Below the pieces are notes generated by a model. It had not been told where the DNA came from, did not search any database, and worked only from the letters and a program-made list of their open reading frames with translations. Below, piece by piece: positions 3,029 to 38,700 of a stretch of 47,857 nucleotides of DNA (position 1 is the stretch's first letter; every line of letters starts with the position of its first letter). Origin of the DNA: Chiloscyllium plagiosum (lineage: Eukaryota); the NCBI RefSeq assembly GCF_004010195.1, contig NC_057752.1, forward strand, positions 15,306,371 to 15,354,227. The letters are read 5' to 3'. The position numbers and the translations under genes were made by a program.

Positions 3029-3029
3029 G

Positions 3030-11055: not shown

Positions 11056-11647
11056 CCAGAAACTGAAGTGGGCTAGTCATATAGATACAGTGGCTACAAG
11101 AGCAGCTCAGAGGTTAGGAATTATGTGCCAAGTAACCCACCTTGAAAGTGTTACGGAATATTCTCCACTTGTCTAGTTCCAACAACACCCCAGGAGTTTA
11201 ACACCATCCAGGACAAATCAGCCTGCTTGGTTCGTACAATATCAGAAATATTCACTCCTTCTACCACCAATGCTCAGTAGCAACAGTGTGTACCATGTAC
11301 AAGATGAAATTCCAACAATTCACCAAAGTTCTTTAGACAGCAGCTTCCAAACTCATGACCGCTCCTATCTAGAAGGCCAATGCAGCAGATACATGGAAGC
11401 ACCAGCCCCTGCACCTTCCGCTTTAAGCAACTCAACATCTTGACTTTGAAATATGACGCTGTCCCTGCAGTGCTGCTGGGTCAAAACCCAGGAACTCCTG
11501 CCTACCCCACATAAACAGCAGTGGTTCAAGAAGGTACATCTCTCACACTTCCTTCACAGCAATTAGGGATGGGCCAGCCCATGATGGCCACATCCTGTGA
11601 ATTTTTTTTTATAAATCAAAAGGCAAGCACACAAGACTCAGAAAGGT

Positions 11648-13897: not shown

Positions 13898-14960
13898 GTC
13901 AGAAATGTTTACAGCATGGATGCCATTTAGCCAGTCGCGTCTGTGTTAGCTCTTCAAAAGAACAATTCATCTTGTGCTTTTCCCCCTTGCCTTCTCCCCA
14001 CAATCCAGTACACATTTCCTTTTCAGGAAACAATCCAATTTCCTCTTAAAGGCCTTGCCTCTGCTCCTCTGCACTCTCAAGCAGCACTTACTAGATCCTA
14101 ACCACTTGCTGTGTAAAGAAAAATGTTTTCCTCCTGCTGCTCTTGTCAATCACCTTAAATTAGTCTCCTCTGGTTAGTAATCCTTCCACTAATGGGAACA
14201 GTTTCTCTGGATCCTGTCCAGACCTTTGGTGATTTTGAGCACCTCGATCAACTCTCCTCTCAGCCTTCTGTTTTCCATGCAGAACAGTCTTGGTTTCTCC
14301 AATACAGCTTCAGAAATGGAATCGGAAGTGGGTTCTGCAGATGCTGGAGATTAGAGTTAAGATTAGAGTGGTGCTGGAAAAGCACAGCAGGTCAGGCAGC
14401 ATCTGAGGAGCAGGAAAATCGATGTTTCGGGCCGGAGCCCTTCATCAGGAATGAGGCTTGTGGGCTGAGGGGATGGAGTGATAAAATGGTGTTGCTCATC
14501 CTTTGAACCATTCTTGCAAACCTTTTTTGCATTCTCTCGGAACCTTTCACATCTTTCCTGAAGTGTGGTGCCCAAAACTGGTCACAATGAGGCTGAATGG
14601 TAGTTTGTGTGGATTGATCATAACTGCTCTGATAGTGCACTTTGTGCCCCTGCTGTTGAAGTCCAGGATGCTATATTCTTTATTAATCACTTCCTCAGCC
14701 TGTCCTGCCACCTTCAATGCTTTGTGTATATATACTCCGTATTCCCAGGTCCCTCTGCTCCCGTGCCCCTTTTGGAATTGTGCTCTTTATATTGTTCCTC
14801 CAAACTGAATCACTTCATATTTTTCTGTATTACATTTCCTTGACAACATACCAGCCCATTCCACCAGCCTGCCTGTGTTCTCTTGAGGTTCATCAGTACC
14901 TTCCCTATAATCCACAATCCTTCCAAGATTTGTGTGATCCTCCAATTTTGATCCTGTACA
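13898..14960 (-). mobile_element. Old CR1 LINE 3' portion, interrupted by a Penelope fragment
   Basis: Minus strand QPHCDQFWAPHFRKDVKGSERMQKRFARMV and AFKRKLDCFLKRK, with a CR1-type 3'UTR toward 13900. Confidence 0.78.
14324..14486 (-). mobile_element. Penelope terminal-repeat fragment carrying a hammerhead motif (14421-14448)
   Basis: Homologous to 8101-8250. Minus strand CTGATGA-A-GGGC-TCCG-GCCC-GAAA-C-ATC. Confidence 0.85.
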
Positions 14961-15036
14961 CTCAAGTTGGTGTCACTAATAGAGTCATAGGGGCCTAAAG
15001 CACAGACGCAGGCTCATTGGCCTAAACTGGCCCTTC

Positions 15037-15072
15037 ATTCCTGAAGAAGGGCTCATGCCCGAAACGTCGATT
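15037..15072 (+). ncRNA. Minimal type I hammerhead ribozyme motif, intact core, in a Penelope terminal repeat (15034-15125)
   Basis: ATTC-CTGAAGA-A-GGGC-TCAT-GCCC-GAAA-C-GTC-GATT: catalytic core, 4-bp stem II, loopless palindromic helix III (ACGT), GUC cleavage triplet and a short helix I. Confidence 0.8.
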
Positions 15073-15125
15073 CTCCTGTTCCTTGGATGCTGCCTGACCT
15101 GCTGCGCTTTTCCAGCAACACATTT

Positions 15126-15625: not shown

Positions 15626-18600
15626 TGAGTGCAATTTGATTCATTAAATTTATGAGTTAAGTTTGGTTCGTTGAACGTATGATTGAAATTTGATTCAATG
15701 AATGAATGAATGCCGTTCGAGTCTTTGAATGAATGAGTTGAGCTTGAAACATTGAATGATTGAGAGAAGCTCTACACGGCGAATTAACGCGTGAGGCTTG
15801 TTTCATTGAATGAATGAATGAGGGCAGTTTGTTTCATTGAATGAACGATTGAAGTTAGATTCAACGAATCAATGAATGCAGTTTCTTTCATTTAATGAAG
15901 ATGTTAAACTTGAGACATTCAATATATGAGATAAGCTGGACTCGTTGAATTAGCACATGCATTTTGTTTCATTGAACGTTTGAGTGCAGTTTGATTAATT
16001 GATTGAATGAATGCAGTTTGCTTCATTGATTGAATGCGTCAAGCTCGAGACATTGAACGAATGAGATTAGCTCTACTGAGTGAATTAACATGTGAGGTTT
16101 GTTTCATTAAATGAATGAGTGTATGTTTCAGTAAATGAATGAGTGCAGTTTGACTCATTAAATGTATTAGTTAAGTTTGTTTTACTGAATGAATGATTGA
16201 AGTGTGATTTAATGAATGAATGAATGCAGTTTGACTCTTTGAATGAATGAGAGAAGCCCTACACGTTGAGTTTACGCGTGTAGTTTGTTTCATTCAATGT
16301 ATGAGGGCAGTTTGATTCATTGAATGGATTAAAACAGTTTGATTCATTGAATGCATGAATGCATTTGGATTAATTCAATGAATGAGTTAAGTTTGTTTCA
16401 TTGATCTATGAATAATGTTTGTTGTTAAGGTTGTTTCATTAAATGAATGAGTGCAGTTTGATTCTTTGATTGAATGAAGGCAGTTTGATTCATTGATTGA
16501 ATGAAGGCAGTTTGATTCATTGAATGAATGAATGCAGTTGGATTCATGAAATGAATGAGTTATCTTTGTTTCATTTAAGCAATGAATAACGTTTAATTCA
16601 TTGAATGATTGATTGAAGTTAGATTCAATGCATAGATGAGATAAGCCCAAACCATTGAATTAACACCGGCATTCTGTTTCATCCAATGAATGACTGCACT
16701 TTGTTTCAGAAACTGGAGTGCTGTTTGTATAATTACTTGCATGAGTTAAGTTTTTTGCATTGAATGATTAAGTGTAGTTTGATTCAATGAATGAATGCAG
16801 TTTGATGCTTCGAATGAATGAATGAAGTTTGATTCATTGAATGAATGATTGCAATTTGATTCTTTGAAAGAATGTGTTAAGCTCGAGACATTGAATGAAA
16901 GAGAGAATCTCTATTCATTGAATTAGCACATGCAGTTTGTTTCATTGAATGAATGAGTGCAGTTTGATTCATTGAATGAGTGAATACGGGTGGATTCATT
17001 AAATGAATGAGTTAAGTTTGTTTCATTGAATAAATGAAAAACGTTTGAATCATTGAATGAACGATTGAACTTTGATTCAATAAATGAACAATTGAAGTTG
17101 GATTCATTAATCTATGAGTTAAGTTTGTTACATTGAATCAAAAATAACTTTTAATTCAAATAATGAATGACTGAAGTTAGATTCAATGAATGAATGAATA
17201 AATGCAGTGTAATTTTTTAAATGAATGAGTTAAGCTCGCGACATTGAATGAATGAGAGAACGTCTACTCAGTGGATTAACACGTGCAGCTTGTTTCAGTG
17301 AATGAATGATTGCAGTTCGAATAATTGAATGATTGAATGCAGTTTGATTCATTGAATGTACGAATGAACGCAGTTTGATTCATTGAATGAATGAATACAG
17401 TGGGATTCATGAAATTAATGCATTAAGTTTGTTTCATTGAATCAATGAATAACGTTTGATTCATTGAATGTACGATCCAGGTTTGTTTCATTAAATGAAT
17501 GAATACAGTTTGATTCATTGAATGAATAAATGAAGCTTTATTCATCGAAAAAACTAAAGCAGTTTAATTCTTTGAATGAATGAGTTAAGCTCGAGACATT
17601 GAATGAGTGAGAGAAGCAGTTTGTTTCATTGAATGAATGAGTGCGGTTTGTATAAATGCATTCAGTTTGATTCATTGAATGAATGTATTCAGTCGGATTC
17701 TTCGAATGAATGAAAGTAGTTTGATTCGTTGTATGAATGAGTTCAGCTCGCGACATTGAATAAATGAGCAAAGCTCTGCTCATTTAATTAACTGCAATTG
17801 ATTGAATGCAGTTTAATTCTTTGAACGAATGCGTTGAGCTCGAGACATTGCATGAATGAGAGAAGCTCTACTCGTTGAATTAATACGTGCAGTTTATTTC
17901 ATAGAATGATTGAGTGCAGTTTGATTCATTGAATGAATGAAAGCATGCAGTTTAATTCTTCGGATCAATGAATTCAGTTGGATTCATTAAACGAATGAGT
18001 TAAGTTTTTTCATTGAATCAATGACTAACATTTGATTCATTGAATGAATGATTGAAGATAGATTCAATGAAGTTTGTTTCATTGAATAAAGGTGTTAAGC
18101 TTGAGACATGGAATGAATAAGATAAGCTCTTCTCATTGAATTAATGTGCATTTTGTTTCATTGAATGAATGAGTGCCGTTAAGTTACTTTCATTGAGTGA
18201 ATGATTGAAGTTTGATACAATGAATGACTGATTTCAGTTTGAATCTTTTAATGAATGCTGTATGCATGGAATGAATGAGAGAAGCTCTACTCATTGAATT
18301 AACACGTGCAGTTTGTTATCATTGAATGAATGAGTGCATTTTGATTCATTGCATGGATGAATGCTGTTGGATTGATTAAATGAGTAAAGTTTGTTTTATT
18401 GAATGAATAAATAAGGTTTGATTCATTGAATGGACGATTGCTGTTTGATTGATTAAATAAATGAATGCAGCCTGATTCATTGTATGCATGTGTTAAGTTT
18501 GTTTCATTGAACGAATGATTGAACTTTGATTCAATAAATGAATGAATACAGTTTGAATCATTAAATGTATGAGTTCAGTTTGTTTCATTGAATCAATGAA

Positions 18601-21600
18601 TAACATTTGGTTCATTGAACGAAGGATTGAACTTTGATTCAATAAATGAATGAATGCAGGTTGATTAATTTAATGTATGTGTTAAGCTTGAAAAATTGAA
18701 TGAATGAGATAAGCACTTTCATTAAATTAACACATACAGATGTTTCATTGAATGAATGAGTGCAGTTTGATACATTGAATGAATGATGAATGCAGTTTGA
18801 TCCCTGGAATAAATGAATGCAGTAGGATTCATTAAGTGAATGAAATGTTTGTTTCATTGAATTAATGAATAAAATTTGGTTCGCTGATTGTACAACTGAA
18901 GTTTTGTTCAATGAATGAATGAATGAATGCAGTTTGTTTCATGGAATGAATGAAAGCATTGTGATTCACTGAATGAATGAATGAACGCAGGTGGTTTCAG
19001 TAAACAAATGAGTGCAGTTTGAGTGCAGTTATACTTGAGACATTGAATGAATGAGAGAAGCCCTACTCATTGAATTAACACATGCAGTTTGCTTCATTGA
19101 ATTAATGAATGCAGTTTGTTTCATTAAATGAATGAGTGAAGTTTGATTAATTAAATGTACGAGTCAAGTTGGTTTCATTGAATCAATATATAACGTTCGA
19201 TTATAACGTATGATTGAAGTTTGAATTATTAAATGAATGAATGCAGCTTTATTCATTAAATGTATATGTTAAGTGTGTCACATTGAATCAAGGAAGAATG
19301 ATTCATTGAATGAACGCTTGAAGATTGATTCAATGAATGAATGCAGTTGTATTCTTTATATAAATAACTGAAGCTTGAAACATTGAATGAATGAGATAAA
19401 CTGTACTCATGGAATTAACAAGTTCAGTTTGTTTCATTGAATGAATGAATGCAGTTTGATTCTTTGAAGGAATGAGTTAAGAACGAGACATTGACTGAAT
19501 GAGAGAAACTCCACTCATTGAATTAACCAATGCAATTTGTTTCGTTGTGTGAATCAGAGCAGTTTGATGCATTCAATGAATAAATGCCATTTCATTCAGT
19601 AAATGTATGAGTTATTTTGTTTCATTTAATCAATGAATAGCGTTTCAATCATTGAATGAGCGATTGAAGTAGGATTCATTAAATGAATGAATACAGTTTG
19701 TTTAATTAAACTTAAACTTGGTTTTGTTGGAGAAATGACAATCGTTTGATTCATTGAATGAATGATTTAAGTTTGATTCAACGAATAAATGAATGCAGTT
19801 TGATTCTTTAAATGACTGAGTTAAGCTCGACACGTTGAATGAATGAGAGAAGCTCCACTCGCTGAATGAACACGTGCAATTTGTATCATTGAATAAATGA
19901 CTGCAGTTTGATTCATTGAACGAATGAATGTAGTTGGATTCATTAAATGAATGAATCAATGCAGATTGCTTCATTGAATGGCTGAGTGAATTTGATTCAT
20001 TGAATGAATGAATGAATGCAGTTGGATTCAGTGAGTAAATGAATGCAGTTGGATTGATTAAATGAATGAGTTAAGATTATTTAATTGAATCGATGAGTAA
20101 CGTTTGACTCATTGAAACAACGATTATGGTTTGATTCACTGAATGAATGATTGCAGTTTGATTCATCGAATGAATGAATGCAGTTGGATTCATTAAAAGA
20201 ATGAGTTAGTTTTTTTTCCCTTGAATCAATGAATAACGTTTGATCTATTGAATGAACGATTGAAGTTTTATATAATGAATGAAAGAATGAAGTTTGATTC
20301 TTTGAATAAATGTGTGCAGTTTGATTCATTAAATGTATGCGTCAAGACAGTTTCATTAAACCAAGGAATAACATTTGATTCATTGAATGAATGATTGAAG
20401 TTTGATTCAATTAATCAACGAATGCTGTTTGTTTGATTGAATGAATGTGCTAAACTTGATACATTGAATGAATGAGAGAAGCTCCACTCATTGAATTAAC
20501 ACAATTTGTTTCAGTTTGATTCATTGAATGAATGAATGCAGGTTGGTTCATTAAACTTAAATTGGTTTCATTGAATAAATGAATTACATTTGATTTATTG
20601 AATTAACATTGAAGTTTGATTCAGTGAATTAATGAATGCAGTTGGATGCTTTGAATCCAAAAGTTCAGCTCGTGACATTGAAAGAATGACAGAAGCTCCA
20701 CTCAGCATGTTTCATTGAATGAATGAGTGCAGTTTGATTCATTGAATGAATGCAGTTTGATCCATTAAAGGAATGAGTGCAGTCTGATTCTTTAAATGCA
20801 TGAGTTAAGATAGTTGCATTAATACAAGGAATAACGTTTGATTCATTGAATGAATGATTGAAGTTTGATTCAATAAATGAACAAATGTTGTTTGTTTCAT
20901 TGAATGAATGCACGAGGCTCAAGACATTGAATGAATGAAAGAAGCTCTACTCATTGAATTAATATGTGCAGTTTGTTTCATCGAATGTGTGACTCCAGTT
21001 GGATTCATTAAATGAATGAGTTTAAGTGTGTTTCAGTGAATCGATGAATATCTTTCGATTAATTAAACGAACGATTGAGATTTGTTTGACTAGATGAATG
21101 AATGCAGTCTAATACTTGGAATGCAGGAGTGAAATAACACGTTGAGATTGTTTCATTGAATGAATGAGTGCGATTTGATTCATTGAATGAATGCGCATTC
21201 ATTCATTCAATGGATAAAACGTTATTCTTTGATTTAATGAAACAAACTTAACTCATATATTCACCGACTCAACCTGCATTTATTCATTTCATGAAACAAA
21301 CTTCAATCATTCATTCAATCAATCAAACGCTATTCATTGTTTTAATAAAGCAAACGTAACGTTCTTCGTTGATTCAATGAAATAAACTTAACACAAGCTG
21401 CACGTGTTAATTCAATGGGTAGAGCATATCACATTCATTCGATGTCTCGAGCTTAATGCATTCACTCATTGAAACAAACTACATTCAACTATTCAATAAA
21501 ACAAACTTAACGTATTTATTCAGTGAAACAAACTTAATTTATTCATTTAATGAATCAAACTGCATTCATTCATTCAATGAATCCTGCTGCATTCATTAAT

Positions 21601-24600
21601 TCAATGTATTAAACGACACTCATTCATTTAATGAATCAAGCTGCATTAATTTATTCGTTGAATTAAACTTCAATCATTCATTGAAAGAAACAACATTAGC
21701 TCATGCATTTAATTAATCAAACCATATTCATTCCTTTATTGGAATAAACTACACATTCTTCAAAATACAGACTGCACGTGTTAATACAAAGAGGAGAGCT
21801 GATCTCATTCATTCAATGTCTCGAGCTTCATGCATTCATTCAATGAAACAAACTACATTCCCTCACACAACAAAACAAACTGCGCTCAACCATTCAATGA
21901 AACAGAGCACAGGTGTTAATTCAATGAGGAGAGCTTAACTCATTCCTTCAATGTCTCGAGCTTAATGCATTCATTCAATGGAAAAAACAAATGCATTCCT
22001 TTATGCAATGAATCAAACTGCACTCTATCATTCAATGAAACATAACGCACGTGTTAACTCAATGAGGGCAGCTTATCTCGTTCATTCAATGTCTCGAGCT
22101 TAACGCATTCATTCAATTAAACGAACTGCATTCATTCATTCATTGAATTAAACTTCAATCATTCGTTCTATGAAACAAACTTAACTCATAAATATAATGG
22201 ATCAAACTGCACTTGTGCATCTATTGAAACAAGCTGCACCATTCATTCATTAAATGAATCAAATTTAGCTCATTCATTTAATTAATCCAACTGCATTCAT
22301 TCATTCCATGAATCAAACTGCTTTCATTCATGCAATGAATCAAACCGCACTTATTCATTCAATGAAACAAACTTAGCACGTACATTTAATGAATCCAACT
22401 GCATTAATTCATTTAGTGAAAGTGCATTCAACCATTCAATGAAACAAAGTACACGTGATAATTCAGTGTGTAGAGCTTATCTCATTCATTCAATGCCTTG
22501 AGTATAACGCATTCATTCAATGACACAAACTGCATTCATTCATGCAATGAATCAAACTGCAGTCAATCATTCAATGAAACAAAACGCAGGTTTTAATTTT
22601 CAATCAGTTGAGCTTATCTCATTCATTGAAAATCGCGAGCTTAACTGCATTCATTCATTGAATCTAACTTCAATCATTCATTCAATAAACGCAAACGTCA
22701 TTCTCTGATTCAATGAAACAAACTTAACTCATGCATTTAATGAATCAAACTGCAGTTTTGCATTTACTGAAACAAACTGTACTCATTCATTCAATTGAAC
22801 AAAGCACACGTTTTAATTCATCTCATTCATTCAAAATGCCGAGCTTAACGCATTCATTCAATGAAACAACCTGCATTCATTCATTTATTGAATGTAACGT
22901 CAATCATTCACTCAATGAATCAAACGTTATTCTTAGATTCAATGAAACAAACAGCACTCATACATTCAATGCATCAAACTGAATCCATTCATTCAAGGAA
23001 ACAAAGTGCATTCATTAATTCAATGTATTAAACGGCACTCATTCATTTAAAGAATCAAGCTGCATTAATTCATTCGTTGAATCAAACTGCAATCATTCGT
23101 TCGATGAAACAACCTTAGCTCATGCATTTAATGAATCAAACCATATTCATTCCTTTATTGAAACAAACTACACTCATTCTTCAATGATACAAAGTGCACC
23201 TGTTAATTCAATGAGGAGAGCTGATCTCATTCATTCAATCTCTCGAGCTTAACGCATTCATTCAATGAAACAAACTGCATCCCCTCACTCAACAAAATAA
23301 ACTGCGGTCTACCATTCAATGAAACAGAGCACAGGTGTTAATTCAAAGAGTAGAGCTTAACTCATTCATTCAATGTCTCGAGCTTAATGTAAAAAAACAA
23401 CTGCGTTCCTTCATGCAATGAATCAAAATGCACTCAAACATTCAATGAAACAGAACGCACGTGTTAACTCAATGAGTGCAGCTTATTTCATTCATTCAAT
23501 GTCTCGTGCTAAACGCATTCATTCAATTAAACGAACTGCATTCGTTCATTCATTGAATCAAACTTCAATCATTCGTTCTATGAAACAAACTTAACTCATA
23601 AATTTAATGAATCAAACTGCACTTGTGCATTTATTGAAACAAATTGCACCCATTCTTTCATTAAATGAATCAAATTTAACTCATTCATTTAATTAATCCA
23701 ACTGCATTCATTCATTCCATGAATCAAACTGCTTTCATTCATGCAATGAATCAAACCGCACACAATCATTCAATGAAACAAACTTAGCACATTCATTTAA
23801 TGAATCCAACTGCATTCATTCATTTAGTGAAAGTGCATTAAACCATTCAATGAAACAAAGCACGCGTGTTAATTCAGTGTGTAGAGCTTATCTCATTCAT
23901 TTAATATCTCGAGCTGAACTGCATTGGTCCATTCATTGAATCTAACTCCAATCATTCATTCAATGAACGTAACGTCACTTTCTGATTCAATGATACAAAC
24001 TTAACTGATACATTTAACGAATCAAACTGCAGTTATGCATTTACTGAAACAAACTGTACGCATTCATTCAATGAAACAAAGCACACGTTTTAATTAATCT
24101 CATTCATTCAATATGCCGAGCTTAAAGCATTCATTCAATGAAACAATCTGCATTCATTCATTTATTGAATATGACGTCAATCATTCATTCAATGAAAGAA
24201 ACAACGATTTGAAACAATGAATAAAGTTTGAATGATTGAATGAACGATTGATGTTTAATTCATGAAATGAATTAATGCAGTTTGATACATTTAATAAAAG
24301 TTAAGTTTGTTTCATTGATTCAAAGCATAACGTTAGATTCATTGAATGAATGATTGAAGTTAGATTCAATGAATGAATGCAGAAACAAAGTACACGTGTT
24401 AATTCAATAAGTCGAGCTTATCTCATTATTTCAATGTCTCGAGCGTCAGATTTTCATTCAGTGAAACAAACTGCATTCTCTCATTCAATAAGTCAAATGA
24501 ACTCAACCATTCAATGAAACAAAGCACACGAGTTAATTCAGTGAGTAGAGCGTATCTCATTCATTCAATGCCTCGAGCTTAACGCATACATTCAATGAAA

Positions 24601-24844
24601 CAAACTACATTCGTTAATTCAATCAGTTGAGCTTATCTCATTAATTGAATATCTCGAGCTTAACTGCATTCGTCCATTCATTGAATCTAACGTCAATCAT
24701 TCATTCAATGAACCAAACGTTATTCTTTGATTCAATGAAACAAACTTAACTCATACATTCGGAGATGCCGGGGTTGGACTGGGGTGTACAAAGTTAAAAA
24801 TCACACAACACCAGGTTATAGTCCAACAGGTTTAATTGGAAGCA

Positions 24845-24879
24845 CACTAGCTTTCGGAGCGACGCTCCTTCATCAGGAC
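24845..24879 (-). ncRNA. Minimal hammerhead ribozyme motif, antisense twin
   Basis: Minus strand GTC-CTGATGA-A-GGAGC-GTC-GCTCC-GAAA-G-CTA-GTG. The core is intact; helix I is disrupted by the inversion junction. Confidence 0.7.
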
Positions 24880-24886
24880 GAACAAT

Positions 24887-24921
24887 CACCTGATGAAGGA
24901 GCATCGCTCCGAAAGCTAGTG
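24887..24921 (+). ncRNA. Minimal type I hammerhead ribozyme motif, all helices intact
   Basis: CAC-CTGATGA-A-GGAGC-ATC-GCTCC-GAAA-G-CTA-GTG: helix I CAC/GTG, 5-bp stem II, palindromic helix III AGCT, CUA cleavage triplet. Confidence 0.85.
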
Positions 24922-27900
24922 TGCTTCCAATTAAACCTGTTGGACTATAACCTGGTGTTGTGTGATTTTTAACTTAACTCATACATTTAATGAATCAAAC
25001 AGCAGTTATGCATTTTCTGAAACAAACTGGACTCATTCATTCAATGAAATAAAACACACATTTTAATTCAATGCGTATGGCATTCGCATTCATTCAATAT
25101 TCCGAGCTTAAATCGTTAATTCAATCATTCAAACTTTATTTATTGTTTCAAAGAGTTAAGTTTGTATCAGTGAATCAGAGAATGACGTTTGGTTCATTGA
25201 ATGAATGATTGAAGTTAGATTCAATGCATGAATGAATGCAGGTTGTTTCATTGAATGAATGCGTTAAGCTCGGCATATTGAATGAATGAAAATGCGATAC
25301 ACATTGAATTAAAACGTGTACTTTATTTCAGTGAATGAATGAGTCCAGTTTATTTGAGTAAATGCATACCTGCAGTTTGATTCATCAAATGTATGAGTTA
25401 AGTTTGTTTCATTGAATCGAAGAATGACGTTAGGTTCATTGAATGAATGATTGAAGTTAGATTCAATAAATGAACGAATGCAGTTAAGCTCGACATATTG
25501 AATGAATGAGATAAGTTCAACTGATTGAATTAAAACTTGCGTTTTTTTCATTGAATGATTGACTGCAGTTTGATTCATTGCATGAACGAATGCAGTTCGT
25601 TTAATTGAATGAATGCGTTAAGGGCGAGACATTGAATGAATGAGTTAAGCTCTACTCATTGAATTAGCACGTATGCTCTGTTTCATTGAATGGCTGAGCG
25701 CAGTTTGTTTTGTTGAGTGAGCGAATGCAGTTTGTATCATTGAATGAATGCATTCAGTTCGAGACATTGAATGAATGAGATCAGCTCTCCTCTTTGAATT
25801 AACACGTGCAGTGTGTATCATTGAAGAATGGGTGTAGTTTGTTTCAATAAAGGAATGAATATGGTTTGATTCATTAAATGCATGAGCTAAAGGTATTTCA
25901 TCGAACGAATGATTGAAGTTTGATTCAACGAATGAATTAATGCAGCTTGATTCTTTAAATGAATGAGTGCCGTTTAATACATTGAATTAATGAATGTAGC
26001 TTGATTCATTGAATGAATGAATGCAGTTGGATTCTTTAAAAGAATAAGTTAAGTTTGTTTAATTGAATCAATGATTAACGTTTGATTTATTGAGTGAATG
26101 ATTGAAGTTAGATTCAATAAATAAATGAAAGCAGTTGGATTCATTGAATGAATGCGTTAAGCTCCAGATATTGAATGAATGAAACAAACTTAACTCATAC
26201 ATTTAATGAATCAAATTGCATGCCTTCCCTCATTCAATAAATCAAACTGCACTTCAACCATTCAGTCAAACAAAGCGCATGTGTTAATTCAAAGATTAGC
26301 GTTTATCTTGTTAATTCGATGTCTCGAGCTTAACGCATTCATTCAATGAAACAATCTGCATTCATTCATTGAATCTAACTTCAATCATTCAGTCAATGAA
26401 TCAAACGTTATTCTTTGATTCAATGAAACAAACTTAACTTTGATTAGATGTACCAAACTGCACTCATTCATTTAATGAATTAAACTTCAATCGTTGATTC
26501 AATCATTCCAACTTTATTCATTGTTTCAAAGAGTTAAGTTTGTTTCATTGAATCAAAGTATAACGTTCGATTCATTGAATGAATGATTGAAGTTAGATTC
26601 AATAAATGAATGAATGCAGTTTGTTTCACTGAATGAATACCTGTAGCTCGGGATATTGAAATAATGAGAGAAGCTCTACTTATTGAATTAACACGTGTGC
26701 ATTGTTTCATTGAATGGTTTAATGCACTTTCACTAAATGAATGAATGCAGTTGGATTCATTAAATGAATGTGCTAAGTTTGTTTCATTGAATGATTGTGT
26801 GAGGTTTGATTCATTGCATGAATGAAAGCAGTTTGATTCATGGAATGAATGAATGCAGTTGGATTAATTAAATGAATGAGTTAAGTTTGATTCATTTAAT
26901 GAATGAATGGGTGCAGTTTGTTTCAATAAATGCACAAGTGCAGTTTGATTCATTACATTTATGAGTTAAGTTTGTTTCATAGAACGAATGATTGAAGTTT
27001 GATTGAATGAATAAACGAATGCAGTTCGTTTAATTGAATGAATGCGTTAAGCTCGAGACATTGAATGAATGAAATAAGCTGCACACATTGAGTTAACACG
27101 TGCGTTCTGTTTCATTGAATGTTTGAGTGCATTTTGATTCATTGCATGAAGGAACGCAGTTGTTTTTTTTCCATTAAGTTCGAGACATTGAATGAATGAG
27201 TTAAGCTCTACTCTTTGAATTACCACCTGTGCTCTGTCTCATTGAATGGTTGAGCGCAGTTTGTTTTGTTGAGTGAGGGAATGCAGTTTGTTTCATTGAA
27301 TGAATGCAATAAGCTCGAGACATTGAATGAATGAGATCAGCTCTCCTCATTGAATTAACAGGTGCAGTTTGTATCATTGACGAATGAGTGTAGTTTGTTT
27401 CAATAAAGGAATGAATATGGTTTCATTCATTAAATACATGAGCTAAGGTTGATTCATTGAACGAATGATTGAAGTTTGATTCAACGAATCAATTAATGCA
27501 GCGTGATTCTTTAAATCAATGAGTGCCGTTTAAAACATTGAATTAATGAATGCAGCTTGATTCATTGAATGAATGAATGCAGTTGGATTATTTAAGTGAA
27601 TAAGTTAAGTTTGTTTAATTGAATCAATGATTAACGCTGGATTCAATGAGTGAATGTTTGAAGTTAGATTCAATTAATGAATGAATGCAGTTGGATTTAT
27701 TGAATGAATCCGTTAAGCTCGAGACATTGAATGAATGAGATAAGCTCGACTCATTGAATTAACGCGTCCAGTTTGTTTCATTGAATGAATGAATTCAGTC
27801 TGATTCATTGAATGTATCTATCAGTTTGTTTCATTGAACCAAGAGTAGAGTTTAATTCTTTGAATTAATGATTGAAGTTAGATTCAATAAATGAATGAAA

Positions 27901-29280
27901 GCAGTTTGTTTCACTGAATGTATGCGTTAAGCTCCAGACATTGAATGAATGAAACAAACTTAACTCATACATTTAATGAATCAAATTGCATGCCTTCCTA
28001 CATTCAATAATTCAAACTGCATTTCAACCATTCAGTCAAACAAAGCACACGTGTTAATACAATGATTAGAGTTTATCTTGTTAAATCGATGTCTCGAGCT
28101 TAACGCATTCATTCAATGAAACAATCTGCATTCATTCATTGAATCTAACTTCAGTCATTCATTCAATGAATCAAACGTTATTCTTTGATTCAATGAAACA
28201 AACTTAACTTTGATTATATGTATCAAACTGCATTACTTCATTTCATGAATTAAACTTCAATTGTTCATTCAATCATTCAAACTTTATTCATTGTTTCAAA
28301 GCGTTAAGTTTGTTTCATTGAATCAAAGAATAACGTTTGATTCATTGAATGTATGATTGACGTTAGATTCAGTAAATGAATGAATGCAGTTTGTTTCATT
28401 GAATGAATGTGTTAAACTCGGCATATTGAATGAATTAGATTAATTTAAACGTGTGCTTTCTTTGATTGAATGAATGAGTACAGTTTGATTCAGTAAATGC
28501 AGTTTGATTCATTAAATGTATGAGTAAAGTTTTTTTCATTGAATCAGAGAATGACGTTTGCTTCATTGAATGAATGATTGAAGTTAGATTCAATTCAGTT
28601 AAGCTCGCGATATTCAATGAATGAGATAAGCTCAACTGATTGAATTAATGTGTGCGTTTTTTTCATTTAATGATTGACTGCAGTTTGATTCATTGCATGA
28701 ATGAGTGCAGGTTGTTTCATTGAATGAATGCGTTAAGCTCAAGGCATTGAATGAATGAGATAAGCTCTACACACTGAATTAACACGTGTGGTTTGTTTCA
28801 TTGAAGTGTTGAATGCACTTTCACTAAATGAATGAATGCAGTTGGATTCATTAAATGCATGTGGTAAGTTTGTTTCATTGAATGATTGTGTGCGGTTTGA
28901 TTCATTGCATGAATGAAAGCAGTTTGATTCATGGAAGGAATGAATGCAGTTGGATTAATTAAATGAATGAGTTAAGTTTGATTCATTTAATAAATGAATG
29001 GGTGCAGTTTGTTTCAATAAGTGCACAAGTGTAGTTTGATTCATTAAATTTATGTGTTAGGTTTGTTTCATAGAACAAATGATTGAAGCTTGATACAATG
29101 AATGAACGTTCATTTAATTGAATGAATGCGTTAAGCTTGAGACATTGAATGAATGAAATAAGCTGCACTCATTGAGTTAACACGTGCGTTCTGTTTCATT
29201 GAATGTTTGAGTGCATTTTGATTCATTGCATGAAGTAACGCAATTGTTTTTTTTCCATTAACTCGAGACATTGAATGAAT

Positions 29281-30285
29281 GTCAAGGAGGGCCAGTACTG
29301 AGGGAGTGCTGCACTGTCAGAGGGTCAGTAATGAGGCAATGCCACACTGTTGGAGGGTCAGTGCTGAGGGAGTGCAGCACTGTCGGAGGGTCAATGCTGA
29401 GGGAGTGCCACACTGTCAGTGGGTCAGTGCTGAGGGACTGCTGCAATGTCGGAGGGTCAGTGTTGCGGGTGGGCCGCACTGTTGGTGGATCAGTGCTGAG
29501 GGAGTGCAGCTCTGTCAGAGGGTCAGTACTGAGGGAATGCTGCACTGTCAGACACGCAGTGCTGTGGCAGTGCCGCACTGTCAGAGGGGCAGGACTGAGG
29601 GAGTGCCACACTGTCGGAGGGTCAGTACTGAGGGAGCGCCGCACTGTCAGAGAGTCAGTACTGAGGGAGTCCTGCACTTCGGAGGGTCAGTGTTGAGGGA
29701 GTGGGCACTGTCAGTGGTCAGCGCTGAGGCAGTGCTGCACTGTCAAATGGTCAGTGCTGAGGGAGTGCTGCACTGTCAGAGGGTCAGTGCTGAGGGAGTG
29801 CCGCATTGTCGGAGGGTCAGTACTGAGGGAATGCTGCACTGCCGGAGGGTCAGGGCTCGGGGAGTGCTGCACTGTCGGAGGGTCAGTGCTGAGGGAGTGC
29901 TGCAGTGTCAAAGGGTCAATACTGAGGGTAGTGCTGCACCCTCAGAGGGTCAGTACTGAGGCAGTGCCGCACTGTCCGACGGTCAGTGCTGAGGGAGTGC
30001 AGCACTGTCGGAGGGTCAGTGCTGAGGGAGTGCTGCACTGTCAGAGGGTCAGTACTGAGGGAATGCTGCAATGTCAGAGACTCAGTGCTGAGGCAGTGCC
30101 ACGCTTTCGGGGGATCAGTGCTGAGGGAGTGCAGCACTGTCGGAGGGTCAGTGCTGAGGGAGTGCTGCACTGTCAGAGGGTCAGTACTGAGGGAATGCTG
30201 CACTGTCAGAGACTCAGTGCTGAGGCAGTGCCACACTGTCAGAGACTCAGTGCTGAGGCAGTCCCACACTGTCGGAGCATCAGTC
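29281..30285 (+). repeat. Satellite B: 33-bp tandem repeat, about 30 copies
   Basis: Unit CACTGTCGGAGGGTCAGT(G/A)CTGAGGGAGTGCTG. The 11-aa periodicity (GGSVLRECCTV) in the ORF track confirms the 33-bp period. Confidence 0.95.
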
Positions 30286-33200
30286 CTGAGAGAACAGCAG
30301 TGCCTCTGTATCATAGAGACAACAGCAGCGAGTATGCATTTGAGATAGAGCAGCAATGTCTGATTATCTGAGTGAGAACAGCAGTCGCTGTGTATCTGAA
30401 AGCGAACAGCAGTACCTGTGTAGTTGAGAGGGAACAGCGGTGCCTTCGTATCACAGAGACAACAGCAGTGCTTGTGTATCTGAGAAAGAACTGCATTGCC
30501 TGTGTAGCTGAGGGAGAACGGCAATCCCTTTGTATCTGAGAGAGAACAACAGTGCCTGTGTGTCTGACAACAGCATTACCTATGCATCTGAGAGAGACAA
30601 GCATTGCTTCTGTATCAGAGAGCGAACAGCAGTGCCTGTGTATATGATAGAGTACAGGATCGCCTATCTATATATGGGAGAACAGCAGTGCCTTGCATCT
30701 GAGGTAGAACAGCGGTGCCTGTGTACCTGAGAGAGAACAGCAGTGCTTTTGCAGCTCACGGAGAACAGCAGTGCCTGTGCATTTGAGAGGGAACTGCATT
30801 GCTTGTGCATTTGTGATAGGACAGTAGTGCCTGGGCATCTGAGGGAGAACAGCAGTGCCTGTGTAGATGAGGGAGAACAGCAATGCCTGCATATCCGAGA
30901 GAGAACAGCGGTGCTGGTGTTTCTGAGGGAGAAAAGCAGCGCCTTTGAGGGAGAACAGCGGTGCCTGCATATCCGAGAATGAACAGCATTGTCGGTGCGT
31001 TTGAAATAGAATAGTACTGCCTGTGGATCTGAGAGAGAACAGCATTGCCTGTGTGGTTGAGAGTGAACAGCAGTGCCTTCGCATCAGAGAGGGAACAGCA
31101 GAGCTTTTGTATCTGAACGACAATCGAATGCCTTTGTGTTTGAGAGAGAACAGCAGTGCATCTGTATCAGAGTGAGAACAGCAGTGCCTGTGTATCTGAG
31201 AACAACAGTGCATGTGTATCTCAGAGAGATTAGTTGTGCCTTCGTATCTGGGAGAGAACAGCAGTGCACGTTATCTGTAGGAGACCAGCAGTGCCTGAGG
31301 AGCTGAGGGAGACGAGCAGTGCCTGTGTATCTGAGAGTGAACAGCATTGTCTGTGCATTTGAGATAAAATAGTCGTGCCTGTGCATTTGAGATAGAACAG
31401 CAGGGCCTGTGCATCTGAGGGAGAACAGCAGTGCCTGTGTGGATGAGGGAGAACAGTGTTGCCTGTGTATCAAAGAGAGAACAGCGGTGCCTCGCAATCA
31501 CAGAGAAAACAGCAGTGCCAGTGTATCTTCGAGTAAACAACAGTGCCTATGCATCTGGGAGAGAACAGGAGTGCCTCTGTATCAGATCGAGAATAGCAGT
31601 ACCACTGCATCTGAGAAAACAGCCGTGCCTGAGTATCTGAGAGAGAACAGCAGTGTCTTTGAGTCTGAGAGTGAACAACATTTGAGATAGTGCCTGCGCA
31701 TCTGAGATAGAACAACAGTGCCTGTGTATATGAGAGAAGACAGCGGTGCTGTGACTCTTGGAGAGAACAGCAGTGCCTCTGTATCTGAGAAAACAGCTCT
31801 GTCTGTGTGTCTGAGAGAGAATAGCAGTGCCTTTGCATCTGAGAGAGAACAGCAAAGTTTTTGTAGCTGAACGACAATCGCAGTGCCTGTGAAGCTGAGG
31901 GAGAACAGTAGTGCCTTTGCATCTGAGAGAGGCAAGCGTTGCCTCTGTATCAGTGAGAGAACAGCAGTGCCTGTGTATCTGAGAGAACAGCATTGCATAT
32001 GTATATGAGGGAGAACAGCATTGCCTGGTATCTGAGATAGAACAGTGGTGCCTGCGCATCTGAGAGAGAACACCAGTGTGTTTGAGAGTGTACAGCAGTG
32101 CCTTCGTATCAGAGAGGGAACAGCCATGCTTTTGTATCTGAACAACAATCGCAGTGCCTGTGTATCAGATTGGGAACAGCAGTGCCTTATTATCTGATAG
32201 AGAACAGGAGTTCCTGTGTCTCTTAGAGATAACAGCAGTGCCTCGGTATCAGAGAGAGAACAGCTGTACCTGTGTATGTGAGGGAGAACAGCAGTGCCTG
32301 TCAATCATAGAGAGAACAGAGAGACAACAGAATTGTGTGAGTATCTCAGAGAGAAAAGTAGTGCCTCTTCGTCAGACAGTGAACAGCAGTTCCTGTGTCA
32401 CTGACGGAAAACAGCAGTGCCTCTGCATCAGAGAGAGAAGAACAGTGCCTGTATTTCTGAGAGAGAACAGCAGTCCCTGTGTATCGTATAGAGAACAGCA
32501 TCCTTGTGCATGTGAGAGAGAACAGCAGTGCCTGTGTATCTGAGAGAGAACTGCAGTGTCTGTGTATGTGAAAGAACAACAGTACTTGTGTATGTGAGAG
32601 AGTACTGCAGTGCCTGTGTACGTGGGAGAGAACAGCAGAGACTGTGCATGTGAGAGGGAACAGCTGTGTGTGCGTATCTGAGAGAGAACAGCAGCGTTGC
32701 GGTATCTGAGAGAGAACAACAATACCTGCATACATGAGAGAGAGAGAGCAGCAGTACCTGCGTCTCTTATCGAGAACAGCATCATTGTGTGTCTTCGAGA
32801 GAACAGCGCTTCCTGTGTATCCACGAGGGAACAGCAGTGCCTGTGTATCTGACAGAGAACAGCAGTGCATGACTATCCAACAGAGAACCGCATTCCTGTG
32901 GTCCAAAGTGAAAACAGAAGTACCTGTGTATCTGAGAGAGAGGAGCAGTGGCAAAATGTCTGAAAGAATAGCAGTGTGTGCATATATGAGAGAGAACAGC
33001 AGTGCCTGTGAATCTTACAGTGAACTGCAGTCCCTGTGTATCTTACAGAGAATAGAAGTCCATCAGTATCTAATAGAGGACAGCAGTCCCGGTTTATAAT
33101 CAAGAGAATAGCCATGCCTGAGCATCTGAGAGAGGACAGCACTATCTGTGAGGACAGCAGTATCTGGGGTCCCCCTGCACGTTATAGAGAACAGCAGTTC

Positions 33201-33324
33201 CTGTTTCTATTCGAGAGAACAGCAGCGCCTGTGTATATGAGAGATAACAGCAGCGCCTGTGTATATGAGAGAGAACAGCAGTGTCTGTGCATTTTAATGG
33301 GCACAGCAGTCACTCGGCATCTTT

Positions 33325-33620
33325 GGCGACATGGTGGCAAAGTGTTTCGCCAGGGTCCCGGGTTCACTTCCAGCATCGGGTGGACTGACTATGTGGAGTT
33401 TGCACATTCTCTCAGTGTCTGTGTGAGCTTCCTCCGGGTGCTCCGGTTTCCTCCCCAGTCCAAAGATGTGTAAGTCAGGTGAATTGGCCATGCTAAATTG
33501 CCCGTAGTGTTAGGCGCATTAGTAAGAGGGAAATGGGGCTGGGTGGGCTACTTTTCGGAGGGTCGGTGTGGGCTTGTTGGGCCGAAGGGCCTGCTTCCAC
33601 ACTGTAGGAAATTTAATCTA
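33325..33620 (+). mobile_element. HE1-type V-SINE inserted in satellite C
   Basis: Head GGCGACATGGTGGC..CCGGGTTCACTTCC, V-domain GTGGAGTTTGCACATTCTC..CTCCGGGTGCTCCGGTTTCCTCC, tail GGGCCGAAGGGCCTGCTTCCACACTGTAG. Confidence 0.9.
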
Positions 33621-33866
33621 CTTGACAGAGATCAGCAGTCCCTGTGCATCTGGGAGAGAACAGCAGTGCCTGTGTATCGCAATGGAAACAGCAGTCTCTG
33701 TGAACATTATATTGCATACATCATCAGTCCCTGTGTCTCTGAAAGAGAACATCAGTGCCTGTGTTTCTGAGAGAGAATGCCAGTGCCTGTGTACTTTATA
33801 GAGAACAGTATCCCTGTGTATCTTACAGTGCCTGTGTACTTTATAGAGAACAGTAGTCCCTGTGTA

Positions 33867-34563
33867 TAGAACATAAAAAAAAACAGCGCAGTACAGGCCC
33901 TTTGGCCCTCGAAGTTGCGCCGATCCAAGCCCACCTAACCCACACTAGCCCACTATCCTCCATATGCCTATCCAATGCCCGTTTAAATGCCCATAAAGAG
34001 GGAGAGTCCACCACTGCTACTGGCAGGGCATTCCATGAACTCACGACTCGCTGAGTAAAGAATCTACCCCTAACATCTGTCCTATACCTACCACCCCTTA
34101 ATTTAAAGCTATGCCCCCTCGTAATAGCTGACTCCATACGTAGAAAAAGGTNNNNNNNNNNNNNNNNNNNNNNNNNNNNNNNNNNNNNNNNNNNNNNNNN
34201 NNNNNNNNNNNNNNNNNNNNNNNNNNNNNNNNNNNNNNNNNNNNNNNNNNNNNNNNNNCTTCACTGCACTATTTACCTGGGTGGCAACTTTCAGAGATCT
34301 GTGTACATGGACACCAAGATCCCTCTGCTCATCCACACTACCAAGCATCCGACCATTAGCCCAGTACCCCATCTTTTTGTTACTCTTACCAAAGTGAATC
34401 ACCTCACACTTACCTACATTGAACTCCATTTGCCACCTTTCTGCCCAGCTCTGCAGCTTATCTATATCCCGCTGTAACCTGACACATCTTTCCTCACTGT
34501 CAACAACTCCACCGACTTTCGTACCACCCGCAAACTTGCTCACCCAACCTTCTAGCCCCTCCT
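33867..34563 (-). mobile_element. CR1 LINE 3' part inserted in satellite C (contains a 107-N gap, 34152-34258)
   Basis: VSKFAGGTKVGGVVDSEERCVRLQRDIDKLQSWAERWQMEFNVGKCEVIHFG and TRGHSFKLRGGRYRTDVRGRFFTQRVVSSWNALP. Confidence 0.93.
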
Positions 34564-35082
34564 AGTATCTTATAGAGAACAACAGTGCCTGTGTAACTGA
34601 GAGAGAACAGCAGTGCTTGTATACCATAATGGAAACAACAGTCTCTGTGAAAATTACAGAGATCATCAGTCCCCGTGTCTCTGAGGGAGAACACCAATGC
34701 CTGTGTATCTTTTAGAGAATAGCATCCCTGTGTATCCTACAAAGAACAACAGTTCCCGTTTGTCTGAGGGAGAAGAGCAGTACCTGTGCATCTGTGAAAG
34801 TACAGCAGTGCCTGTGAATCATACAGAGAATATCAGTAACGGTGTGTCTTACAGAGCAGCCATCTTCCTGCACCGTATTGAGGACAGTAGTCCCTGTTTC
34901 TATTCAACAGAACAGCAGTGCCTGCATATCTGAGAGAGAACAGCATTGCCTTGTATCTGAAAGAGAACAGCGGTGCCTGGGCATCTGAGAGAGAAGAGGA
35001 GTTCCTGTGTCTCTGGGAGAGAACAGCAGTGCCTCTGTATCAGAGAGAGAATAGTAGTGTCTTCGTATCTCAGAGATTCGTA

Positions 35083-35230
35083 TCCCTTTCAGATACACAG
35101 GCATTGCTGTTCTCTCTCAGATACGCAGACACTGCTGTTTAGATTAGATTGGATTACTTACAATGTGGAAACAGGCCCTTCGGCCCAACAAGTCCACACT
35201 GACCCTCCAAAGAGCAATCCACCCAGACCC
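35083..35230 (-). repeat. Inverted duplicate of 35699-35846 (SINE tail plus flanking satellite)
   Basis: 148-bp reverse complement of 35699-35846 with about 4 mismatches by eye, spanning the SINE/satellite junction. Confidence 0.9.
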
Positions 35231-35466
35231 ACGCTTCTGTCAGAGAACAGCAATGCCTGTGTATCTGAGAGAGAATGGCAGTGCCTTTGCATCTGACAAA
35301 GCTCAGCAGTGCCTGTGCATCTGAGACAGAACAGCAGTGCCTTCGTATCAGATAGGGAACAGCTGTATCTGAACGACAATTGCAGTGCCTGTGTAGCTGA
35401 GGGAGAACAGCAGTGCCTCTGTATCATAGAGAGAACAGGTGTACCTGTGTATCTGAGGGAGAACAT

Positions 35467-35790
35467 GGACGGCACGGTGGCACAGTGGTTAGCACTGCTG
35501 CCTCACAGCGCCAGAGACCTGGGTTCAATTCCCGCCTCGGACAACTGACTGTGTGGAGTTTGCACATTCTCCCCATGTCTGCGTGGGTTTCCTCCGTGTG
35601 CTCCGGTTTCCTCCCACAGTCCAAAGATGTGCAGGTCAGGTGAATTGACCATGCTAAATTGCCTATAGTGTTAGGTGAAGGGGTAAATGTAGGGGAATGG
35701 GTCTGGGTGGATTGCTCTTTGAAGGGTCAGTGTGGACCTGTTGGGCTGAAGGGCCTGTTTCCACACTGTAAGTAATCCAATCTAATCTAA
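35467..35790 (+). mobile_element. HE1-type V-SINE, full length, inserted in satellite C
   Basis: GGCACGGTGGCACAGTGGTTAGCACTGCTGCCTCACAGCGCCAGAGACCTGGGTTCAATTCC (A and B boxes), V-domain, tail ..CCACACTGTAAGTAATCCAATCTAATCTAA. Confidence 0.94.
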
Positions 35791-38700
35791 ACAGCAGTGT
35801 CTGCGTATCTGAGAGAGAACAGCAATGCCTGTGTATCTGAAAGGGAACAGCAGTGCGTTTGTACCTGAAAGAGAGTGGCAGTGCCTCTGTATCAGAGAGA
35901 ACAGCTGTACCTGTGTATCTGAGGGAGAGCAGAAGTGCCTCTGTATCAGAGAGAGAACAGCAGTGCTGGTGTATCAGAGAGAGAACAGCAGGACCTGAGT
36001 ATCAGAGAGTGAACAGCATTGCATGAGTATCTCAGAGAGAACAGTAGTCCCTCTGCATTAGACAGTGAACAGCAGTTCCTGTGTCTCTGACGGAAAGCTG
36101 CAGTGCCTGTGTAGCTGAGGGAGACCAGCAGTGCCTTTGTATCTGTGAGAGAACAGCATTGCCTGTGACTCTGAGAGAGAACAGCAGTGCCTGCGTATCT
36201 GAGAGAGAACAGCATCCCCGTGTGTGTTATGGACAACAGCAACCCCTGTGTATCTGAAAGAGAATAGCGGTACTTATGTATCTGAGGGAAAATAGCAGTG
36301 TCAGTGTATCGTGTAGACAACAGCAGTGCCTGTGTAACTGAGAGAGAACAGCAGTGCCTGTGAAGGTGAGAGAGAACAGCATCCATGTGTACGTGAGAGA
36401 GAACACCAGTCCCTGCGTGTCTGAGAAAGAACAGCAGTACTGGTGTATCTGAGGCAGAGCAACAGTGCCTGTGAATCTTACAGAGAACATCAGTCATTGT
36501 GTGTCTTACAGAACAGCAGTCCCCTACACTGTGCAGAGAACAGCTGTCCCTGTTTCTATTCGAGAGAATAGCAGTGCCTGACTATCTGAGAGAGAACAGC
36601 AGTGCCTGTGTATCTTATCGAGAAGAGCTGTCCCTGTTTATCTTACAGAGAACAGCGGGCTCTGTGTATCTGAGGGACAACCGCAGTGCCTCTGTATCTT
36701 ACAGAGAATAGCAGTGCCTGTATGCCTTCCAGAGTGCAGGAGTGCCTGTGTATCTTCGAGAGAACAGCAATGCCTGTGCTTCTGAGAGAGATCAGCAGAA
36801 CCTGCGCATCTGAAAGAGAATATCAGTGACTGTATATCAGACAGAGAACAGCAGTGCCTCTGTATCGGAGAGAACAGTGCCTGCGTATCTGGGAGAGGAC
36901 ACCAGTGTCTGTGCATCCGAGAGAACAGTTGTGCCTGTGCATCTGAGAGAGAACATCATTGCCGGTGTATCGGAGAGAGACCAGAAATGCCTGTGCATCT
37001 GAAAGGACAAACGTCCGTGTGTATCGTATGAAGAACAGCAGTCCTTGTGTATCGTATAGAGAACAGCATCGCTGTGTATCTTACAGACAAAAGCAGTCCC
37101 TGTGTATCTGTGAGAGAACAGAGGTGCCTGTGTATGTGGGAAGAAACAGCAGTGACTGTGCCTGTGAGACAGAACAGCAGTGTGAGTGTATCTTACAGAG
37201 AACGGCAGTTATCGTGTATCTGGGAGTGAACAGCAGTGCCTCTGTAGCTGAGACAACAGCATCCCGGTGTAACTGAGAGAAAACAGCAGTCCCTGTGTAT
37301 CGTATAGAGAACAGCATCCTTGTGCATGTGAGAGAGAACAGCAGTGCCTGTGTATCTGAGAGAGAACTGCAGTGTCTGTGTATGTGAAAGAACAACAGTA
37401 CTTGTGTATGTGAGAGAGTACTACAGTGCCTGTGTACGTGGGAGAGAACAGCAGTGAGGGAACATCAGTGCTGGTGTATCAGAGAGAGACCAGAAATGTC
37501 TGTGCATCTGAGAGAACAAACGTCCCTGTGTATCTTATGAAGAACAGCAGTCCTTATGTATCAGCAGTGCCTGTGTACCTTACCGAGAACAGCTGTCCCT
37601 GTTTATCTTACAGAGAACAGCGGGCTCTGTGTATCTGAGAGACAACAGCAGTGACTCTGTATCTTACAGAAAACTTCAGTGCCTGTGTGCCTTCCAGAGT
37701 GCAGCAGAGCCTGGGTATCTTCTAGAGAACAGTAGAGTCACCGTTCCGGGAGAGGACAGCAGTGCCTGTGCATCTGAGAGAGAACATCAGTGCTGGTGTA
37801 TCAGAGAGAGACCAGAAATGCCTATGCATCTGAGAGAACAAACGTCCCTGTGTATCTTATGAAGAACAGCAGTCCTTATGTATTGTATAGAGAACAGCAT
37901 CCCTGTGTATCTTACAGACAAAAGCAGTCCCTGTGTATCTGAGAGGGAACAGCAGTGCCTGTGTATGTGGGAGAGAACAGCGGTGACTATGCCTGTTCGA
38001 CAGAACAGCAGTGTGAGTGTATCTTACAGAGAACAGTAGTTACTGTGTATCTGAGAGTGTACAGCAGTGCCTCTGTAGCTGAGAGACAACAGCATCCGTG
38101 TGCTGCTGAGAGAGAACAGCAGTCCCTGTGTATCGTGTAGAGAATAGCATCCTTTGTGCATGTGAAAGAGAACAGCAGTGCCTGTGTATCTGAGAGAGAA
38201 CAGTAGAGCCTGTGTATGTGAGAGAACAACAGTGCTTGTCATGTGAGAGAGAACAGCAGTACCTGTGTATGTGGGAGAACAGAAATGCCTGTGTATCTGA
38301 GAGAGAACAGCAGAGCCTTTGTATCAAGGAGAGAACAGCTGTGCCAATGTATCTGAGAGAACTGCTGTTCTCTCCCAGATGCAGTGACACTGCTGTTCTC
38401 TCTAAGATACACAGGCACTGCTGCACTCTGGAAGGCATACAGGCACTGCTGTTCACTGTAAGATACAAAGGCACTGCTGTTGTCTCTCAAATACACAGAG
38501 CCTGCTGTTCTCTGTAAGATCAACAGAGATAGCTGTTCTCGATAAGATGCACAGGCACTGCTGTTCTCTCTCAGACACACAGGGACTGCTGATCTCTGTA
38601 AGACACACAGTGACTGCTGTTATCATTAAGGTACACAGGCACTGCTGTTCTCTCTCGTATACACAGGCACTTCTGTTCTCTCTCAGATAGCCAGAAACTG

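Follow-up and report, generated by a model that had tools for sequence, protein, structure and literature searches.

Within a 47,857-nucleotide stretch of Chiloscyllium plagiosum contig NC_057752.1 (hereafter the window), a 216-bp hairpin with a hammerhead motif on each strand interrupts an AT-rich satellite. What is this insert, how did it arise, and would RNA read from it cleave itself, act as a hairpin or do neither? The hairpin and its two motifs are confirmed. With a probability of about 0.88, we explain them as a head-to-head insertion of two hammerhead-bearing pLTRs from a high-copy Penelope-like element (PLE) that is likely a Neptune-type element; the insertion was likely made in one event and is now likely immobile and unable to self-cleave. 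In window coordinates, its parts are:

15626..29215, no strand: degenerate AT-rich 27-bp tandem array around the insertion.
24743..24759, plus strand: left copy of the target duplication (TSD), 17 bp, or 12 bp with 5 arm-end nucleotides assigned to the element.
24760..24975: whole hairpin insert, 216 bp, with a hammerhead motif on each strand.
24760..24790, minus strand: PLE tail, 31 bp, on one arm only; in the sense of the element it lies 3' of the minus-strand pLTR copy.
24791..24877, minus strand: pLTR copy, ending 1 nt upstream of the hammerhead core.
24878..24881, no strand: filler at the head-to-head junction, 4 nt, matching the family continuation of neither arm.
24882..24975, plus strand: pLTR copy, 94 bp, without tail, starting 8 nt upstream of the core.
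24971..24987, plus strand: right TSD copy, its first 5 nt common to the arm end.

A preliminary description had reported near-identical 87-bp inverted arms, a one-sided extension of about 31 bp and an outward-pointing hammerhead core on each strand, and all three were recovered. The arms (24791-24877 and 24889-24975) match over 87 bp with a single mismatch (24863/24903), the extension occupies 24760-24790 at only one end (31 bp, or 34 bp counting a shared ATT), and the cores begin at 24890 on the plus strand and 24876 on the minus strand. The true start of the plus arm is 24882, 7 nt within the apparent spacer, as given by joints and loose ends at that position in sequencing data. Family depth is high across the tail (24762-24790), and the last three nucleotides of the left TSD copy, ATT, match the family tail end in the loose-end consensus at 24773. 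G+C content is 0.46 in the insert and 0.30-0.33 in the flanks. RNA folding of 24760-24976 gave -168.7 kcal/mol (z = -24.8, equalled by 0 of 200 shuffles). Rfam returned no match to the insert at the gathering score; its 13 matches were all miRNA families, and we rejected an identity as miRNA precursor because these are generic hairpin matches, the best scoring 45.8 bits against a gathering score of 81.

The 17-bp direct repeat that brackets the insert (24743-24759 = 24971-24987) corresponds to a duplication of 12-17 bp, because its first 5 nt also occur in the arm end. By itself this repeat is weak proof, as the same 17-mer has three further exact occurrences in the satellite. When the left and right flanks were aligned separately, however, they joined with a single 17-nt overlap in four satellite units that are paralogous, not allelic, to the insertion site:

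25404-25388 (minus strand), 22721-22737, 23998-24014 and 28531-28515 (minus strand): paralogous units with a single 17-mer.

This single overlap indicates a true target duplication and bears out the 12-17-bp TSD proposed earlier. It also argues against an assembly artefact in the form of a fold-back chimera within the repetitive array. Such an error would fit the two N gaps in the window and the lack of a contig spanning the locus junctions among the 24 listed of about 162,000 pieces, but the asymmetric tail and the filler resemble those of other family joints and the left flank (24600-24709/24718) showed 0 differences in three samples, so that we regard an artefact as extremely unlikely.

The surrounding 27-bp array switches orientation many times (at least eight blocks) and contains large inverted paralogous segments, for example 23854-24095 / 25307-25548. 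At 29287-47200, a 33-bp array gives way to a long 28/56/84-bp array whose orientation likewise changes, for example at 35005-35129 and at 38360.

The layout of the insert has been published for PLEs. Craig et al. 2021 (PMC8557442) describe endonuclease-bearing (EN+) PLEs that have a tail of 30-40 bp at one end and, next to them, a 5'-truncated copy in inverted orientation, and Arkhipova et al. 2013 (PMC3846280) describe rotifer PLEs with inverted pLTRs, mostly head to head, a 31-bp tail and an 8-10-bp TSD. Like the EN+ unit, our insert combines a pLTR and an inverted truncated copy, head to head, with a one-sided tail and a TSD; its pLTR bears a minimal hammerhead, the truncated copies of its family break at variable points, and the TSD has empty counterparts in the paralogous satellite units. 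It differs from the EN+ unit as described there in lacking any ORF and measuring only 216 bp in all, and from the rotifer examples in its TSD of 12-17 bp rather than 8-10 bp. The insert is most likely the usual PLE insertion unit pared down to the pLTR ends. Further literature background is in PMC6765202, PMC6155905 and PMC2377424. Long inverted repeats with a TSD would equally be expected of a MITE or fold-back DNA transposon with terminal inverted repeats. Here, however, a 31-bp tail lies outside one arm, so the arms are not both terminal and the repeats are not flush with the TSD at both termini; moreover, the arm hammerhead shows compensatory changes between families and its relatives adjoin RT and GIY-YIG-type ORFs, as detailed below. 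The transposon reading is therefore largely refuted and retains hardly any probability.

The window holds further inserts of a second, hammerhead-bearing PLE family. One, at 10838-11057 (10822-11073 with its TSD), has a 32-bp tail, 85-bp inverted arms, a 16-bp TSD with one mismatch, an intact plus core and a broken minus core. Another, at 46763-46899 (46748-46914 with its TSD), lies in the 28-bp array with a 15-bp TSD and a 33-bp tail; one inverted arm is short and the long arm starts a few bases before the hammerhead core. Both share the layout of 24760..24975 and differ from it in arm length. Two more stubs of the second family carry hammerheads: 14320-14470 on the minus strand, which has a tail and for which no TSD of at least 7 nt was found, and 15035-15125 on the plus strand, which runs into a 500-N gap.

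The window itself contains no sequence of an RT or an endonuclease, and a literature search returned no published description of the insert's shark family. The connection to a PLE came from translating the insert across its junction, which gave one longer protein match, P0001 from Chiloscyllium punctatum. This single predicted gene model, possibly a splice of separate pieces, runs through the tail and the inverted arm (33/34 amino acids identical), continues into an RT fragment (RVT_1, 29.1 bits against a cut-off of 29.6) and ends with a peptide read from a hammerhead core. At E<=1e-30, 90 longer proteins are related to its RT. A GIY-YIG-like motif is present in 66 of the 90, with a Cys motif just upstream in 62 of these 66; Pfam called GIY-YIG in two of the four tested (P0005 and P0009, not P0002), and it made no such call on L002, introduced below. 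According to Craig et al. 2021 (PMC8557442), the Cys linker motif marks Neptune and Nematis. The linker, read from these relatives and from L002, would fit either of the two, and the parent element is likely a Neptune-type one.

Searching with the hammerhead core pattern led to two metagenome contigs, L001 and L002, which are relatives and not members of the insert's family, with a weak resemblance to the window behind the hammerhead. In L002, 750 bp of non-coding DNA and a hammerhead identical at 33 of 36 nt stand behind the end of a Cys-linker/GIY-YIG-type ORF, which is 45% identical to P0002 over 144 amino acids; in L001, an inverted RT piece is joined to the same 3' region. Drawn from one gene model and from relatives, the link between the hammerhead end and ORFs for PLE RT and GIY-YIG-type endonucleases appears strong but indirect. 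The contigs also contain head-to-head PLE pairs of their own (L001:1-373 and L002:1-109), with longer arms and different break points.

A short translation match, P0092 (WP_221627807.1, 61 amino acids), is translated from a similar palindrome with another centre. It is filed under Proteus mirabilis on a 297-bp contig and likely represents host contamination in a bacterial record. P0093, an Acinetobacter repeat protein that appeared alongside P0092 among the 50% representatives, was rejected as a chance match.

Is the palindrome a unit that spreads as such, or was it made once at this site? We compared four public runs of the organism (three DNA and one RNA, of 24 listed) with positions 24600-25130 (531 bp). 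In the three DNA runs, 67,872, 62,738 and 42,113 contigs fell on this stretch, nearly all on the arms, and the depth summed across arms and tail reached 1 to 13 million, a summed contig depth that does not equal copy number. Depth was 1.0-1.5 million at 24864 and 24902 but 6,041, 5,556 and 2,375 at 24878, and at filler position 24880 it was 689-4,907, against a single-copy depth of about 6-15; it thus falls more than 100-fold at the spacer and filler. Among the 15 listed of 707 joints, ten lie within the element, all with differing end points, and the remaining five join satellite flanks; three of the 15 end at 24882, and loose ends precede 24882 in three of the four runs. The roughly 700 distinct joints and the collapse in depth show that junctions vary, and no fixed mini-family was seen. 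The head-to-head junction has therefore formed afresh at many positions, among which a start lying 8 nt upstream of the core is favoured.

These data bear on both origins considered in the preliminary description. A one-off Penelope inversion product fits everything tested; its other option, a propagating retrozyme-like mini-family, is not supported, given the variable junctions and the placement of the hammerheads on opposite strands. A 216-bp palindrome propagating as a non-autonomous unit with a fixed junction, either retrozyme-like or mobilised in trans by a PLE, would account for the clean TSD and near-identical arms, and PLE pLTRs can mobilise unrelated DNA in trans (PMC3846280). The filler depth, too, exceeds the single-copy level. 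Against such a unit stand the number of different joints, the drop at the filler, the absence of a second copy of the insert within the window and of tandem same-strand hammerheads, and the broken minus core of the second-family palindrome at 10838-11057, which indicates that two intact cores are not a kept feature. We therefore consider it very unlikely. As to whether this exact junction recurs, the public runs argue for variable joints, but the residual depth leaves room for a small sub-family with this filler, which may exist. An exact arm 26-mer had 0 matches in metagenome, viral and prokaryote contigs.

The contrast with retrozymes is also structural. Non-LTR retrozymes, as described by Li, Clavereau and Pollet 2026 (bioRxiv 10.64898/2026.07.22.740005), are likewise non-coding, derive from PLE pLTRs and carry type I hammerheads, but they consist of head-to-tail tandem units with a hammerhead in each, whereas the insert has its two units inverted and a single hammerhead on each strand. 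At least two head-to-tail hammerhead units on the same strand characterise retrozymes; here there is one core per strand. Because the hammerheads lie on opposite strands, no transcript would contain the tandem same-strand pair that defines non-LTR retrozymes.

The same runs qualify the age of the insertion, which had been described as young. One mismatch in 87 bp does point to youth, but the mismatch (24863/24903) falls in a CpG where the family commonly has either letter, G at 24903 accounting for 26-28% of depth in the three DNA runs, so the insertion is dated only loosely. The tail position 24772 has a rare letter, the family having T in 97-99% of depth. A young insertion is plausible.

How might such a unit form in one event? 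We infer that two cDNAs were primed from staggered nicks. By analogy with the Anolis element PAc (PMC11167929), a GIY-YIG endonuclease would nick both strands of the AT-rich target, 12-17 nt apart. The top-strand end, with ATT equal to the tail end, would prime cDNA synthesis from an outer RT start site and yield the tail and the minus arm; the bottom-strand end, with its 5-nt match to the arm end, would prime from an inner start site and yield the tail-less plus arm. Both cDNAs would end at the hammerhead or just in front of it; repair would then link them in head-to-head orientation through 4 filler bases and fill in the target duplication. At lengths of 3 nt and 5 nt, the end matches could be chance occurrences in AT-rich DNA.

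Several of these steps have been observed with PAc. Its protein nicks and extends both target strands with a preference for ATT, and its RT starts at two sites that bracket the tail, with no need for ribozyme cleavage (Frangieh et al. 2024, PMC11167929). The two RT starts, cleavage and extension of both strands and the ATT preference all fit the two ends of the insert. By contrast, PAc belongs to the Penelope/Poseidon clade (Anolis Poseidon) and its ORF starts in the hammerhead, whereas the insert's relatives carry a Neptune/Nematis-type Cys linker and its family has an ATG only at the tail end, as read from the loose-end consensus. A PAc-like initiation stem-loop was sought in the tail-arm region, which folds weakly (z = -1.6, 13 of 200 shuffles equal). 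We found no relevant literature on twin priming in PLEs. An alternative route to inversion, self-priming on an antisense template, was proposed by Arkhipova et al. 2013 (PMC3846280) and could likewise have produced the inversion here.

We then considered the hammerheads themselves, which have the following coordinates:

24845..24877, minus strand: minimal type I hammerhead, core at 24876, predicted cut after 24848, helix I of 1 bp.
24887..24921, plus strand: minimal type I hammerhead, core at 24890-96, predicted cut after 24918; helix I 24887-89/24919-21, extra A at 24897, helix II 24898-902/24906-10, GAAA at 24911-14 and a palindromic AGCT.

In the plus copy, helix I has 3 bp, helix II has 5 bp and helix III is a palindrome without a loop. 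The earlier statement that every helix of this copy is intact therefore holds for a minimal hammerhead only. Rfam gave no hammerhead match on the insert at E<=1. The register is nonetheless supported by covariation of helix I and the helix III palindrome across the two window families and L002: the palindrome is AGCT in the insert, and ACGT or ACAT in two each of the four sense cores of the second family, and helix I is CAC/GTG here, ATC/GAT or TTC/GAT in the second family and 5 bp long in L002. An alternative intramolecular helix III (AGC/GCU with a 6-nt loop) was discarded, as it allows no helix I and is missing in L002.

Minimal hammerheads (min-HHRs) of this kind occur in metazoan PLEs, also as dual motifs 100-700 bp apart on opposite strands (Cervera and de la Pena 2014, PMC4209133). 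Those of the insert share with them the type I core, the extra base between 9 and 10.1, the G10.1-C11.1 pair and the palindromic 15.2-16.2 without loop 3. Compared with the Schistosoma families of that study, helix I is shorter (3 bp in the plus and 1 bp in the minus copy versus 4-5 bp), as is helix II (5 bp versus 7-8 bp), and the two motifs here are about 14 bp rather than 100-700 bp apart. In vitro, a single minimal PLE hammerhead was inactive and dimers had low activity (PMC4209133).

The preliminary description envisaged that read-through transcription would give either a self-cleaving motif or a hairpin that sequesters it. Either transcript contains one sense motif only, and the polymerase reaches it after the complementary arm. 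Relative to the hairpin, a forced hammerhead fold is worse by 53.5 (plus) or 59.0 (minus) kcal/mol, and in the nascent chain still by 51.9 (plus) or 57.3 (minus) kcal/mol. Given this order of transcription and a cost of 52-59 kcal/mol, a switch between cleavage and hairpin is unsupported. The ribozyme motifs are instead predicted to stay trapped in the hairpin in transcripts of either strand, and read-through self-cleavage would not be expected to occur. The hairpin might nonetheless be a source of small RNAs, as the preliminary description suggested.

A function could still be imagined in which read-through hairpin RNA is diced against the PLE family or toggles with self-cleavage, and the 87-bp near-perfect hairpin would indeed form from either strand. 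The energy penalty, nascent chain included, leaves no toggle, however, and this copy is not distinguished from many others. In the RNA data, which amount to about 2% of one raw poly(A) single-cell run and are thus weak, flank depth was 0-1; of the 2046 reads on the stretch, 2039 fit partly and 95 were at least 99% alike. We judge a functional insert to be highly improbable.

These RNA reads pointed to a further property of the arm:

24930..24970, plus strand: poly(A)-signal-like region, with ATTAAA at 24930-35, poly(A) at about 24947-50 and a GU/U-rich stretch behind; mirrored on the minus arm.

Among the six loose ends listed, A-runs occur behind 24947 (276 reads) and 24950 (263 reads), and T-runs occur before the mirror position 24816 (157 reads) and at the tail end 24757 (160 reads); these reads are family-wide, not locus-specific, and a few host genes or internal priming may supply them. 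Poly(A) addition in family RNA reads follows an ATTAAA/AATAAA hexamer by 12-15 nt. A hexamer, then poly(A), then a GU/U-rich stretch is the usual layout of a polyadenylation site. The AATAAA variant makes up 18% of RNA reads and 22-25% of DNA depth and is thus not enriched in RNA; an AATAAA also stands 18 nt behind the cut site in both L001 and L002. Inspected by eye, the window's second family lacks a poly(A)-signal-like hexamer. In the literature searched, with subscription papers and supplements outside the search, we found no account of polyadenylation within PLE pLTRs.

A family poly(A) site inside the arm hints at an LTR-like R region, and together with the favoured start at 24882 it suggests a reading in which the pLTR would act as a true LTR, with RNA starting about 8 nt upstream of the core, poly(A) added about 30 nt past the cut and an R region of about 67 nt that holds the ribozyme. 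We consider this doubtful; the poly(A) single-cell run listed no pile-up of read ends, 5' ends included. If the R-region reading were true, an RT started in the tail would run off the 5' end of the RNA after 95-130 nt, like minus-strand strong-stop DNA; the tiny fold-backs would each consist of two strong-stop cDNAs that were integrated with no strand transfer, and for longer copies such as those in L001 and L002 the cDNA would have to jump to the 3' R region.

A 7-nt word, TTACGAT, stands about 20 nt upstream of the core in the consensus of two RNA loose ends and in L001 and L002 (L002:1310-1325). It may be a promoter or start-site motif.

The locus itself matters little, being one of very many PLE stubs. 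As a head-to-head pair of pLTR ends, the insert compactly exemplifies priming on both strands from two start sites, as demonstrated in vitro with the Anolis element. Lying 30 nt past the cut and upstream of both RT starts, the pLTR poly(A) site could bear on how pLTRs, tails and inverted copies form, and through it such stubs could end host transcripts.
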